This document shows positions 59,943 to 63,986 of a stretch of DNA of 64,000 bases, piece by piece. The notes under the pieces were generated by a model that was not told the origin of the DNA, searched no databases, and saw only the letters and a program-made list of their open reading frames with translations. The first letter of the stretch is position 1. Each line of letters starts with the position of its first letter. The position numbers were made by a program, and so were the translations under genes. The stretch lies in contig JBHLQH010000002.1 of the NCBI GenBank assembly GCA_048884965.1, positions 1 to 64,000 on the forward strand. Reading direction: 5' to 3'. This stretch comes from Candidatus Thorarchaeota archaeon (lineage in GTDB: Archaea > Asgardarchaeota > Thorarchaeia > Thorarchaeales > Thorarchaeaceae).

Positions 59943-61505
59943 TTAGAGGGTAACTCCGAACTTCTGCTCAACTTGAGGTCTATGAAAGATGTTGTAAGTG
60001 CAAAAGGGAATAATCGAACCTTCAGGAGTGGCATAGTTGATGGTGCAATGCTTCACACGCTCTAGATCGAGATTGTAGCAATCTTGGAAGTGCATCATAC
60101 CTAGCATAATGACCTTGTTCATAAATGCACGCAGAGAGCTATAGGAACCAGATTTTAGGAATGACGATATCAGAGGTTTCATCTTAGCTTTCTGTTTGAC
60201 ATGTCGAAGAAAGCCAAATAATTTCAGTCTGGCACGTAATCCAGCCATCCTTTTTTCTTCTGCATAGAGATTGCAGATGTCTTCAAGGGTCTGTAGTAGC
60301 TTCTCCAAATCAACTACCTTGGTTATTGGCACATAACTTCCGTCTTCCTCAATGAAGAGAAAAGTTGCCATCCCGCAAGCGAAATGAGCATGTAATTCGA
60401 ATATCTCGACACCTCGTAGTAATCCAAGTGCACGACCCACACCCATCATAGAAGACACAGGGTACCAGTCACTTGCTTTGATACCTCCGCGTGTCTGTTC
60501 CTCTATGAGATGAATGGCATCTGGAGTTGTGATACGCATCTGTGCTCGTTCAGAATGATCGATACGACCTGTTAGGCTCACGGGTTGAAAATTGATACAT
60601 CTTACAATATCTCGATTATCCAGTGCGTATTGGATTATCCCACCAAGCTCTTGATCGTTCAGCCCTTTGACCACGGTTGGTACCATAATTACACCATCGA
60701 GATTTGCATATCTGGCGCTATCCAACACACGATCCTTGACCTCACGAAGATCCTTACCTCTAGCCTCTAGATATGGTCTTTCGGAAATACCATCAAATTG
60801 AAGATAGATGGTCTTCAATCCAGCATCTACCAATGATTTGAGATACTCAGGATCATTCGCCATCCTAATACCATTGGTAGCTATCATGATATGCCGGAAA
60901 CCAAGCTCCTCGGCCCATTGTACATATTGAATCATGTGTTCACTCAGGGTCGGTTCGCCTCCTGCAAATTGTAGGCCCACACATGGAGCAGGGAGATTTG
61001 AACGAAGATTGGCCATCATGTCATACACTTGCTCTGGAGTAGGCTCATAGACTATCCCTGATTCAGCAGCATTAGCAAAGCAAATGGGACACCTCATATT
61101 GCATCTATTCGTCGGGTCAATAAGACCAAGTGCAGTATGTGCACTGTGTTGAGGGCATTGTCCACAATCCGCAGGACATCCATCTTTGGTTGAAGTCCGA
61201 GGATTCTTCAAACCAATCGTCTTATGCCAGTATCTCATCACTCGACGAAACATATCAGGATCGGACCAATATAGCTCCTCAAAATCACCATGTTTCTCAC
61301 AGGACTTCTGCATCCATATAGCTCCATCCTTCTCAAGTATGATAGCATCTATCACATTGATCTGTCCATCCTCCAGATGACAGTCTGGACATACAGACTT
61401 CGTAGTATAGGGCAATTCACGAGGCTCATGTTTCTCCATCTTGTATCGAGAGAGGTCAGATTTTACTGGATGTTCTCTAACGGATGGTTTCGAGTGTCCC
61501 AACAT
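59943..61505 (-). CDS. tes: radical SAM enzyme of the tetraether synthase (Tes/GDGT-MAS, MJ0619) family
   Basis: N-terminal CPDC...CEKHG metal site, CPADCGQCPQH, CNMRCPICFANA, QFAGGEPT, YLQFDG, INFQPVS..GR, H..CG, C-terminal D.YN.D.ERV..C.I.YATP.G.IIPFC.YN. Confidence 0.85.
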   Translation of the reverse strand: MLGHSKPSVREHPVKSDLSRYKMEKHEPRELPYTTKSVCPDCHLEDGQINVIDAIILEKDGAIWMQKSCEKHGDFEELYWSDPDMFRRVMRYWHKTIGLKNPRTSTKDGCPADCGQCPQHSAHTALGLIDPTNRCNMRCPICFANAAESGIVYEPTPEQVYDMMANLRSNLPAPCVGLQFAGGEPTLSEHMIQYVQWAEELGFRHIMIATNGIRMANDPEYLKSLVDAGLKTIYLQFDGISERPYLEARGKDLREVKDRVLDSARYANLDGVIMVPTVVKGLNDQELGGIIQYALDNRDIVRCINFQPVSLTGRIDHSERAQMRITTPDAIHLIEEQTRGGIKASDWYPVSSMMGVGRALGLLRGVEIFELHAHFACGMATFLFIEEDGSYVPITKVVDLEKLLQTLEDICNLYAEEKRMAGLRARLKLFGFLRHVKQKAKMKPLISSFLKSGSYSSLRAFMNKVIMLGMMHFQDCYNLDLERVKHCTINYATPEGSIIPFCTYNIFHRPQVEQKFGVTL

Positions 61506-61538
61506 AACTACCCCGTTCCTATACTGACTCGGCGCGTT

Positions 61539-63047
61539 TTATATCCTGCCCTTCTCTTTATCTCTAAATACCAATTTGGTTGTGATATCAGCGCTCATCA
61601 GAACGCTGGGAACTCCTGCTCCAGGATGTGTTCCAGCACCAACCAAATACAAACCTTTGATATCTTTGGATCGGTTGTGAGGTCTGAACCATCCAGACTG
61701 AAATAGGATTGGTTGAAGGGAAAAGCCAGCCCCTTTGTACGAGTTGAATTGATCATGATAGTCCTGAGGAGTGAAGACTTCAACGACTTCTAGATTGTCA
61801 ACAAGTCCAGGAAGGACTCTTCTGTCCAAGGTCTCTAAGATATGATCTCGATATGATTCCTTCTTCTCTTCCCAATCGGTCTTTGAATCAAGATTTGTGA
61901 CAGGTGTGCAGGCATACATAGCCTCACATCCTTCCGGAGCTAGTTCAGGATCCGTTCTCGTCGGAATATGAAGGTATGTAGAGAAGTCATCAGGTATGAT
62001 GTGCCTATTGAAAATATCCTTGAGAAGGCCTTTATATCGTGGACCAAAAACGATACTGTGCTGTTCCATCTCCGGATACTGCTTCTTAACACCCATATAG
62101 GTCATGAAGAGACTCATACTGTACTTCGCTCTCTTGTATCTGTGCGGAACGTCTCGAAGGAGGTGCTCCTCATCTATTAGATACATATGGGTATGCGCTA
62201 TATCCGAGTTCGCAATTATGATCTTAGCATCATAGTTCTTGCCGTTCGCAGTTTCGACACCAGTAGCCCGACGCTTTGTGACATTGATCTTCGATACTTC
62301 GGTATTCAGTTCAATCGTGCCACCGAGTTCCTTGAACAGTCGTGCCATCCCTTCGATGAACTTGTGAGTGCCACCTCGAACCCACCACACCCCATGTTTT
62401 TCCTCGATATATGTTATCAAGCAATATATAGCAGTGGACGAAAAGGGATTGCCTCCTATGAATAGTGGATTGAATGATAATGCGATGCGTAAACGCTCAT
62501 CTTTCAAGTAGCTGGCAACCATGCCATGAACACTCTTGTACGCTTTGTGCCAGACGCCCTGAGGAGCGACCTTGACCATACTCCAAGGAGTTTCGAAAGC
62601 TTGAGAGCCGAATCTCTCAAACCCAAGGTCGTATATGGGTTTGATTCGCTTCATGAACTTCTCATAACCCTCTACATCCTTAGGACTTAGGCGCTCGATT
62701 TCCTTGATATTCTCGTCATGTCCTGAATAGTCCATATGCGAGCCATCGGAAAAATACAGACGATATTTCGGCTTTATCTGGATCATGTCGAAATAATCAG
62801 ATCTTTCTTTTCCCGCTGCAGCAAATACATCATCGAGTAAAAAGGGCGGGGTTATTATGGTAGGGCCGGTATCGAAGGTGTATCCCTTCCTTTCAAACAC
62901 GCTAGCTCGTCCTCCAAGCTGATGTCGCTTTTCAAGAAGGGTGACTGAAGCTCCAGCAGCCTGCATTCTGATTGCAGCAGCTAATCCACCAATTCCACCA
63001 CCAATAACAATAGTATTGGCATCCTCTAGTTTGGGAGTACCTGACAT
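61539..63047 (-). CDS. crtI: phytoene desaturase family protein
   Basis: VIGGGIGGLAAA, LGGRA, FDTGPT, GGNPF, FRPHN...GLYLVGAGTHPGAGVPSVLMSA. Start set at ATG 63047, after AGGAGG. Confidence 0.92.
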   Translation of the reverse strand: MSGTPKLEDANTIVIGGGIGGLAAAIRMQAAGASVTLLEKRHQLGGRASVFERKGYTFDTGPTIITPPFLLDDVFAAAGKERSDYFDMIQIKPKYRLYFSDGSHMDYSGHDENIKEIERLSPKDVEGYEKFMKRIKPIYDLGFERFGSQAFETPWSMVKVAPQGVWHKAYKSVHGMVASYLKDERLRIALSFNPLFIGGNPFSSTAIYCLITYIEEKHGVWWVRGGTHKFIEGMARLFKELGGTIELNTEVSKINVTKRRATGVETANGKNYDAKIIIANSDIAHTHMYLIDEEHLLRDVPHRYKRAKYSMSLFMTYMGVKKQYPEMEQHSIVFGPRYKGLLKDIFNRHIIPDDFSTYLHIPTRTDPELAPEGCEAMYACTPVTNLDSKTDWEEKKESYRDHILETLDRRVLPGLVDNLEVVEVFTPQDYHDQFNSYKGAGFSLQPILFQSGWFRPHNRSKDIKGLYLVGAGTHPGAGVPSVLMSADITTKLVFRDKEKGRI

Positions 63048-63095
63048 CCTGATTTTCCTCCTCCTGATATGAAAATGCTGAACAATCAGCAAGTT

Positions 63096-63986
63096 CTATT
63101 CTTCTTGTAGCAAATCCTCGTAATGTTTCTTTTCTTGACGATACTCTCGCCTAAGTTTTGTGGCAATCCATAGCTTCTTCCACTTTGGAACCACTGCACG
63201 TTTTGCGAATACCTGATAATCCATCTTCTCAATCTCATTCATGATCTCACCATAGACTCTACCAGCAACTTTCACAGTGAAGGCAGCACCAGGTGGAAGA
63301 TCAGACTCACCCACTTCAGCTTGTGCATAGATTCCGCGAGCGCGACTGATCTGATTGCGAATCAAGCGCTTGAAATTAGGACCTACGACTCCTCTCTCGA
63401 AATCACTCCTGTCCACCCGAAAATCACGTCTGGTTTCGAGAGGGATGTATATTCTTCCGTTATGAAAATCCTCATTGATGTCGCGTAGGATATTTGTTAA
63501 CTGCATTGCATGCCCCAGATCCGAAGCTCGCTCCAGCGTTTGGGGCTCGATACGTCTCCAAATGTGGCACATCATTATCCCAACCGTGGATGCAACATGA
63601 TAGCAATACTTGTCAAGCTCATCAGTGGTTTCAATCTCTACAAGATTGACATCCATTCGCACACCATCAATCAGCTCATGAAGATATTTGACTGGAATCT
63701 TATACTTCTGCAGCGTGTCCCCAAATGCTGTCAGAAGTGGCTGGTCGAAGGATTCACCTGCGTCCATCCTATCAACGATATCATCCAGAATACCCAATTC
63801 TTGCTCTAATCTATCCGTTGGTAGATCAATCTCATCTGCAAAGTCATCAGCTAGTCTGCAAAAACCATACAGGGCAGCGATTGAACGCCTTTCCTCCGTA
63901 TTCAAGTAGCGAGATGCGAAATGGAATGACCGAGCATGTAGAGAAAAGAGGTCCATGCAGTAATCATAACTTTTCTCCACATCCAA
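63096..63986 (-). CDS. crtB: phytoene/squalene synthase family protein (frame open to the window edge)
   Basis: SF..AS, ALYGFCRLADDFAD, L..YCYHVASTVG, LG.AMQLTNILRD..ED...GRIYIP, RAVV. Confidence 0.92.
   Translation of the reverse strand: MDVEKSYDYCMDLFSLHARSFHFASRYLNTEERRSIAALYGFCRLADDFADEIDLPTDRLEQELGILDDIVDRMDAGESFDQPLLTAFGDTLQKYKIPVKYLHELIDGVRMDVNLVEIETTDELDKYCYHVASTVGIMMCHIWRRIEPQTLERASDLGHAMQLTNILRDINEDFHNGRIYIPLETRRDFRVDRSDFERGVVGPNFKRLIRNQISRARGIYAQAEVGESDLPPGAAFTVKVAGRVYGEIMNEIEKMDYQVFAKRAVVPKWKKLWIATKLRREYRQEKKHYEDLLQEE

Follow-up and report, generated by a model that had tools for sequence, protein, structure and literature searches.

Why should a gene for a membrane-lipid enzyme stand directly behind two genes of carotenoid synthesis? 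The question is raised by a locus at the end of the window, by which we mean the whole stretch of 64,000 nucleotides (nt) that was analyzed, at the start of contig C2 (199 kb long) from a Candidatus Thorarchaeota archaeon. There, crtB and crtI are followed on the same strand by a gene of the tetraether synthase (Tes) type, a radical S-adenosylmethionine (SAM) enzyme that was reportedly identified only in 2022. We find that this gene encodes an accessory Tes paralogue, called Tes-A here, that lies next to carotenoid genes on other Thorarchaeal contigs as well, and we hold with moderate confidence that it is an ordinary second tetraether synthase co-expressed with the carotenoid genes. The original prediction for this locus, made from the DNA alone, knew of no described linkage of tes with crt genes, and our literature search likewise found none.

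Direct reading of the DNA gives three minus-strand genes in close succession. The crtB gene (63096–64000; phytoene synthase family, SQS_PSY, PF00494, 234 bits) runs off the window, and the locus is thus cut by the window edge. Its TAG stop lies at 63098–63096, and a 48-nt spacer (63048–63095) with a AGGAGGAGG ribosome-binding site leads to the crtI ATG at 63047. The crtI gene (61539–63047; phytoene desaturase family, 502 residues from this ATG) ends with its stop at 61539, from which a spacer of 33 nt (61506–61538) leads to the tes ATG at 61505. This second spacer has a GGGG(T) element 5–9 nt before the ATG, and no T-run was seen when it was read for one. The common strand, the short gaps and the absence of a terminator signal before tes are those of a single operon, and crtB, crtI and tes probably form one transcript. 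The original prediction had given the same order and the same gaps of 48 and 33 nt; its gene names agree with Pfam and NCBIfam matches, and it was also right about the operon-like spacing and the Asgard origin. Its TTG start for crtB at 63986 is probably too short, since beyond the window, at contig position 64058, there is an ATG that has a GAGGT ribosome-binding site. That ATG, which is probably the true start, would give a protein of 320 residues, and the homologue in the closest relative has 323.

The best NCBIfam scores of crtB (HpnD, 210 bits; CrtB, 194 bits) are both under the equivalog cut-offs. It is the only SQS_PSY gene in the whole genome, and its gene context suggests a role as phytoene synthase. 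The crtI protein similarly scores under the cut-offs of the specific equivalog models and passes only the broad family model TIGR02734 (crtI_fam, 578 bits versus a cut-off of 238); its homologue adjoins crtB in every crt cluster that we found.

The assignment of the third gene is more specific. Tes-A (59943–61505, minus strand; 520 residues) scores 591 bits with NF045702, above the curated Tes equivalog cut-off of 450 bits, and covers positions 2–485 of the 486 in this profile. It also aligns over its full length to the M. jannaschii glycerol dialkyl glycerol tetraether–macrocyclic archaeol synthase (GDGT-MAS; PDB 7TOL) with 464 bits. The closest database proteins are Thorarchaeotal and fall into two identity tiers. 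The original prediction had proposed a search for another canonical tes gene and a phylogeny of the linked copy. The genome does contain a second Tes-family gene above the cut-off, making two in all; this gene, Tes-B, lies on contig 18, encodes 551 residues, scores 637 bits and is 59% identical to Tes-A at the protein level. When 88 archaeal Tes proteins, Asgard and non-Asgard, were placed in one tree, Tes-B, the near-universal, conserved and orthologous Thorarchaeal copy, formed one clade (40 rows, support 99), and the window gene fell in a separate, patchy sister clade, Tes-A (17 rows, support 98; joint support 100). The two clades nest within an Asgard Tes group, with Methanosarcinales and others outside, and the branches of Tes-A are about twice as long as those of Tes-B. 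This position, sister to Tes-B and inside the Asgard group, implies that Tes-A arose by duplication in or near Thorarchaeia. A haloarchaeal origin was considered and rejected on the same nesting and on the absence of Halobacteria among the best 80 genome hits. Outside the Thorarchaeal family, a Tes-A-like gene stands beside the host's own Tes in two of six genomes of another Asgard family, f16 (G117:C1:3117891-3119408 and G118). These genes are sister to the Thorarchaeal Tes-A clade and suggest transfer between Asgard lineages.

To compare Tes-A with enzymes of known chemistry, we mapped the ligand list of Lloyd et al. (PMC9433317) through the 7TOL alignment onto 29 Tes-A, 40 Tes-B and 31 outgroup sequences. 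All 16 named metal-ligand or catalytic positions are 100% conserved in the 29 Tes-A sequences. These are the rubredoxin-like CX2C...CX2H iron site (C39, C42, C69 and H72), the N-terminal [4Fe-4S] cluster with its CX3CX2C motif plus His (C110, C114, C117 and H120), the radical SAM CX3CX2C motif (C135, C139 and C142), which is invariant in the Tes-B and outgroup sequences as well, and, by alignment, the C-terminal auxiliary cluster (C377, C487 and C502) with M471 and Y491, the equivalents of the labile Met439 and of Tyr459. Tes-A resembles Tes/GDGT-MAS (MJ0619, 7TOL/7TOM; MA_1486) in the order of its parts, from rubredoxin-like zinc ribbon through N-terminal auxiliary cluster and radical SAM core to C-terminal auxiliary cluster, and in keeping every ligand, the labile Met and Tyr459 equivalents included. 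It differs from them as an accessory second copy in a separate clade that evolves about twice as fast and stands behind carotenoid genes, and its activity is a predicted one. At sites conserved in Tes-B and the outgroup, Tes-A has three clade-specific substitutions (L254R, S271G and Q286E) versus two for Tes-B, and on this count we rejected a remodeled active site. As far as the sequence can tell, Tes-A gives no hint of new chemistry.

These residues bear on a second explanation, in which Tes-A takes as its substrate something that the carotenoid pathway makes or branches off, or else a different isoprenoid chain modified by the FixC/FixX-like and PF14249 partners described below, to form a new membrane-spanning isoprenoid. 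We consider this unlikely. The complete set of cofactor ligands and the near absence of clade-specific substitutions argue against it, as does the substrate itself: Tes chemistry has been demonstrated on fully saturated chain ends (PMC9433317), whereas the ends of carotenoids are unsaturated or hydroxylated. The long branches of Tes-A, on the other hand, would fit a changed substrate, and second Tes copies without GDGT output do exist. The second Tes of M. acetivorans, MA_1114, yielded no more than traces of macrocyclic archaeol, and about 20 Halobacteria carry Tes homologues yet make no GDGT (Zeng et al. 2022, PMC8941075). Tes-A is like these as an extra or orphan Tes-family gene, and the halobacterial carriers are also bacterioruberin producers. 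It is unlike them in having arisen by duplication within the Thorarchaeal/Asgard Tes group, with no halobacterial sequence among those 80 best hits.

What pathway do the carotenoid genes belong to? The original prediction saw no cyclase, brp/blh or rhodopsin gene adjacent within the window. That nothing more of carotenoid synthesis adjoins the three genes is correct inside the window but not beyond its edge, and the impression proves to be an artefact of the cut. A divergent arm, crtD–lyeJ–cruF, begins 196 nt past crtB on the opposite strand. Its first gene is a crtD-like, second CrtI-family gene (L009:6255-7724, contig C2 64255–65724) that matches NF058655, a model named bifunctional phytoene desaturase/3,4-desaturase, with 678 bits versus a cut-off of 640. 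At the position of the lycopene elongase gene lyeJ, a UbiA prenyltransferase passes NF009516 (288 bits versus 205), a model named only 'prenyltransferase'. The third gene is of the CruF type (PF04240, 146 bits), and its best NCBIfam model, the CruF bisanhydrobacterioruberin hydratase TIGR03460, is matched with 127.5 bits, under the cut-off of 154.7. By gene content, crtB–crtI and the divergent arm are a predicted five-gene cluster for a bacterioruberin-type C50 carotenoid, with tes appended to the left arm.

The order crtD–lyeJ–cruF is that of the haloarchaeal bacterioruberin genes of Haloarcula japonica, according to PMC9258230, which cites Yang et al. 2015. The likeness extends to the CrtD-like and UbiA proteins, which pass their models, and to the presence of PF04240. 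The differences are an Asgard host that is not a halophile, CruF and crtB scores under the cut-offs, the appended Tes, and a pigment that is predicted from the genes. Among Asgard archaea, the genes crtB, crtI, lyeJ and crtD were previously reported from a Heimdallarchaeon (PMC12137139). A hydroxyarchaeol synthase of the CrtI family indicates that this family is able to act on ether lipids (bioRxiv 10.1101/2025.10.20.683597). The region between crtB and crtD (L009:6059-6254), just outside the window, contains a perfect 10-bp palindrome, TGATTAATCA, in this genome. At the equivalent place, most related clusters have an AT-rich ATTATTAAA-type element that is probably a TATA box. We looked for an operator shared by these intergenic regions and rejected it, because the TGATTAATCA palindrome is not conserved and only the TATA-like ATTATTAAA recurs. 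Separately, a divergent PF04240 (Caroten_synth) paralogue, 31–37% identical to the CruF of the cluster, was seen in genomes without a crt cluster (G341:C6:13494-14030, with weaker matches in G313, G314, G329 and G347).

The linkage of tes to carotenoid genes is not confined to this genome, a point that the original prediction had set for a synteny check. Tes-A lies one or two genes from crtI on six contigs including this one: crtB–crtI–tes recurs in genome G318 and on contigs P0002 and P0021, crtI–tes is present in G374, and the order crtB–crtI–fixC–fixX–tes is found on the P0017 contig. On the last, crtB, crtI, the FixC-like and FixX-like genes, tes, a REC-PAS histidine kinase gene and a MarR gene follow one another closely on the same strand, with gaps of 9, −4, 33 and 2 nt. 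By comparison, when 40 Tes-B loci and 31 non-Thorarchaeal Tes loci were examined, none had a crt gene within 8 kb, and the crtB–crtI–tes layout exceeds chance. In a tree of 36 Tes-A sequences, the crt-adjacent forms are paraphyletic within a 22-row clade (support 97/93), which implies that the crtI–tes adjacency was probably ancestral to this clade, some members of which have since lost or rearranged it. Elsewhere, in G320, G335/G336 and genera g13–g15, Tes-A and the crt genes are separated by 26–59 kb or stand on different contigs. The neighbors of Tes-A in g13–g15 were considered as a functional clue and set aside, as they are housekeeping genes (ThrRS, saccharopine dehydrogenase and a PLP enzyme).

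The locus occupies a position where gene content varies between relatives. The genes for pyruvate dehydrogenase (PDH) E1-alpha, E1-beta and E2 (54849–58055, plus strand; Pfam and NCBIfam matches) are followed by a small zinc-ribbon gene, lplA, a CMD-family gene and an alcohol dehydrogenase (ADH) gene, the far side of this backbone lying at contig C2 67412–70556 (L009:9412-12556). This order is conserved across the family, and the variable slot is the interval that separates PDH E2 from the zinc-ribbon and lplA genes. Most genomes have nothing there. The crt cluster alone fills it in ten genomes, among them G328, which belongs to the same genus as the window; G341 and the P0009 contig have Tes-A alone; the P0014 contig has Tes-A with fixC/fixX-like genes and no crt genes; and Tes-A plus the crt cluster is found in this genome, in G318 and on the P0002 and P0021 contigs. 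Other cargo consists of regulators, large PKD-domain proteins and an AFOR gene (in G318, between lyeJ and cruF). PDH itself was rejected as part of a co-varying island, since E1-alpha is nearly universal (76 of 86 family genomes).

Such a slot invites the explanation that the adjacency is incidental: the E2–lplA interval would be a recombination hot spot into which Tes-A and the crt genes landed together in one lineage, never to be separated, and shared niche or descent would account for the rest. We regard this as possible but doubtful. It is favored by a slot that is mostly empty and holds varied cargo elsewhere (crt only in ten genomes, Tes-A only in two, Tes-A plus crt in three), by the family-wide PDH–lplA–CMD–ADH order, which means that synteny decays slowly here, and by TnpB/Cas12f-like (PF07282) genes that two related contigs carry a few kb away from Tes-A (L028:3965-6097 and L192:10928-11956), which are possible agents of rearrangement around it. 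It is less easily reconciled with crtI–tes being kept outside the slot in G374, where the slot is empty and both crtI–tes and crtD–lyeJ–cruF lie on other contigs, with the tight operon spacing on the P0017 contig, or with the absence of crt genes within 8 kb of all 71 other Tes loci. The P0017 run and the joint movement of crtI and tes in G374, along with the ancestral adjacency in one Tes-A subclade, would also suit a Tes-A with a substrate of its own.

We next asked whether Tes-A and the carotenoid genes occur together irrespective of position, using the genomes of the family. At least one Tes is present in 78 of 85 family genomes. Tes-A is present in 16 of 86, nearly always alongside Tes-B, and 14 of these 16 have crt genes, versus about four expected; the two without are 62% and 86% complete. 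Strong CruF matches were obtained in 20 genomes, 13 of them with Tes-A, and a further Tes-A carrier, G379, has a phytoene-synthase-family gene. The crt cluster is found without Tes-A in seven genomes, an asymmetry that would be expected if Tes-A acted downstream of the carotenoid genes, as in the altered-substrate explanation. The presence and absence of Tes-A and crt are correlated, and the pattern is patchy inside genera g1, g6, g12 and g15. Within g6, g12 and g15 the two co-vary even on different contigs, contrary to what an incidental adjacency would lead one to expect.

To account for shared descent, we used a proxy tree of two proteins only, PDH E1-alpha plus E1-beta, from 74 genomes, which requires at least 10 changes for Tes-A and 13 for CruF. 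This tree gives nine independent contrasts in Tes-A; CruF changes with Tes-A in about 5.6 of them and against it in 0.3 (median p 0.06). Heliorhodopsin served as a control. It is present in 18 family genomes, shared with Tes-A in 4 versus 3.3 expected and with crt in 6 versus 4.2, and its failure to co-vary with Tes-A is a further point against the incidental explanation. A light ecotype behind the whole pattern was rejected because heliorhodopsin tracks neither Tes-A nor crt across the family, although this genome does have the gene (G000 contig C23:47561-48310, L149; 309 bits). A search for type-1 rhodopsins gave no match here, but it gave none in the control genomes either, Haloferax volcanii included, and therefore does not show absence.

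Two sets of partner genes were found in relatives. The first is a gene for a 332-residue protein of the tocopherol cyclase family (PF14249), which directly follows Tes-A in G320 (L014:10623-11621), G379 and G380 (also L011 and L026). Every one of the 14 family genomes with this gene also carries Tes-A, and the other 70 lack it; on the proxy tree, seven of seven informative contrasts go the same way (p 0.016). The PF14249 gene is a closer companion of Tes-A than the carotenoid genes are. G117, in the other Asgard family, also carries one (47% identity). The predicted structure (pLDDT 86.5) is a double barrel of the AttH/kievitone-hydratase type, a fold of enzymes that hydrate double bonds or close rings and that act on isoprenoid double bonds. 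That the best tracker of Tes-A has this fold is a point in favor of a different Tes-A substrate. Our literature search found no paper linking the PF14249 family to Tes. The nearest parallel is the Ted–Hgs pair, a B12-radical SAM tetraether desaturase with an AttH-like hydroxy-GDGT synthase (bioRxiv 10.1101/2025.10.20.683597), in which a radical SAM lipid enzyme likewise has a barrel partner of the AttH fold. In the Tes-A/PF14249 pair, the two genes are found together in 14 of 14 genomes, three of which have them side by side. In contrast to Ted–Hgs, the radical SAM enzyme is a Tes and not a B12-radical SAM protein, the barrel is PF14249, and the partner was not found in the window's genome by protein search, Pfam model or local tblastn; the parallel bears on Tes-A generally and not on this locus.

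The second set is a pair of genes for a FixC-like flavoprotein and a FixX-like ferredoxin. The pair directly precedes Tes-A on the metagenome contigs of P0017 (L191:5400-6967) and P0014 (L190:4889-6549), and on the former it stands between crtI and tes. The flavoprotein scores 418 bits with PRK10015 (under its cut-off of 466), 386 with the FixC model PRK10157 and 133 with the GGR family. This pair could saturate a substrate or feed electrons to the radical SAM cluster. In Methanosarcina, too, a GGR/FixC-superfamily flavoprotein and a small ferredoxin precede Tes (GGR–ferredoxin–Tes, MA_1484–MA_1486; PMC8941075). The Thorarchaeal flavoprotein differs in being nearer to FixC than to GGR, and a close fixC/fixX pair was not found in the window's genome, where the best match is 27–30% identical. 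The lack of both the cyclase-like gene and a close fixC-like gene here weakens the case for a tailored substrate at this locus.

Downstream of tes in the window, the minus-strand run of five genes that fills 58094–64000 (names backed by Pfam and NCBIfam) ends with two putative regulators. A REC-PAS-PAS response-regulator-like protein (58687–59853; Pfam Response_reg and PAS) is encoded directly behind tes, and a MarR/winged-helix regulator (58094–58651; PF12802) follows. Homologues of the REC-PAS protein are found downstream of Tes-A in P0002, P0017, G335 and G336, and a MarR homologue (52% identity) stands behind the Tes-A sensor kinase gene on the P0017 contig. Blue-light sensing of the LOV kind by the REC-PAS protein was rejected, as it has no NCRFL-type flavin motif.

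The interpretation of these results that we prefer is that Tes-A is a conditionally expressed second tetraether synthase, with Tes-B kept elsewhere in the genome. Tes-A would most likely carry out normal Tes chemistry, in which two phytanyl chains of archaeal ether lipids are joined by a radical mechanism at their saturated terminal carbons, and would yield GDGT or macrocyclic archaeol. At this locus, tes would be read through from the crtB promoter, flanked by the REC-PAS protein and the MarR-type regulator; in one subclade, Tes-A would thus have been wired into a carotenoid operon beside PAS-type and MarR regulators, and the cell could raise membrane-spanning lipids and membrane-spanning C50 carotenoids together. 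This corresponds to the first of two options in the original prediction, a co-regulated membrane module. That option fits best, given that the catalytic and metal-binding residues are kept with almost no clade-specific change; the co-regulation itself we infer.

Several observations weigh against this interpretation. Tes-A is not adjacent to crt genes in 10 of the 16 family carriers, and G341 and the P0009 and P0014 contigs hold it at the PDH–lplA slot without them. Gene order is well conserved in the family, which makes a retained adjacency weak evidence of function. The seven genomes with a crt cluster and no Tes-A count here as well, as does G117, a 100% complete genome in which a Tes-A-like gene is present and PF00494 and PF04240 genes are both absent. 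Once the tree is controlled for, the correlation between Tes-A and crt is only suggestive, with p about 0.06 on a two-protein proxy tree; that it is not significant at 0.05 also favors the incidental explanation. At this locus, the AT-rich 3' end of crtI could house an internal promoter. To our knowledge no Thorarchaeon has been cultured, and the lipid product of Tes-A is a predicted one.

Part of the same evidence bears on the second option of the original prediction, a Tes repurposed to act on the products of CrtB and CrtI. This option is weakened by the majority of carriers in which the genes are unlinked, by the slot carriers without crt genes, by the complete genome G117 with neither phytoene synthase nor CruF, and by G341, which has Tes-A but no SQS_PSY gene. 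The boldest form of the idea, that Tes-A couples chains in an as yet undescribed isoprenoid pathway which the carotenoid genes supply and which produces a new Asgard class of membrane-spanning lipid, we regard as improbable. Such an enzyme may, for example, join reduced C40/C50 chains tail to tail or a carotenoid-derived chain to an ether lipid, and the AttH-fold protein and the FixC/FixX pair, where present, may be its tailoring and reducing partners.

The locus defines a distinct clade of Tes paralogues with companions that can be tested: C50 carotenoid genes, PAS-type regulators and, in relatives, a PF14249 hydratase/cyclase-like protein. As nothing more than a co-regulated second GDGT synthase, Tes-A would be a modest case of two routes to a stiffer membrane being wired together. 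A substrate of its own would instead point to a new lipid class, which could shift the sources assigned to sedimentary isoprenoid biomarkers. Extra Tes copies without an assigned product are present in methanogens and Halobacteria (PMC8941075), and a true coupling enzyme would offer a starting point for understanding the orphan copies in Halobacteria and Methanosarcina. Within the Thorarchaeal family itself, about one genome in four has a bacterioruberin-type gene set, and the membranes of Thorarchaea bear on ideas of how eukaryotic membranes arose.

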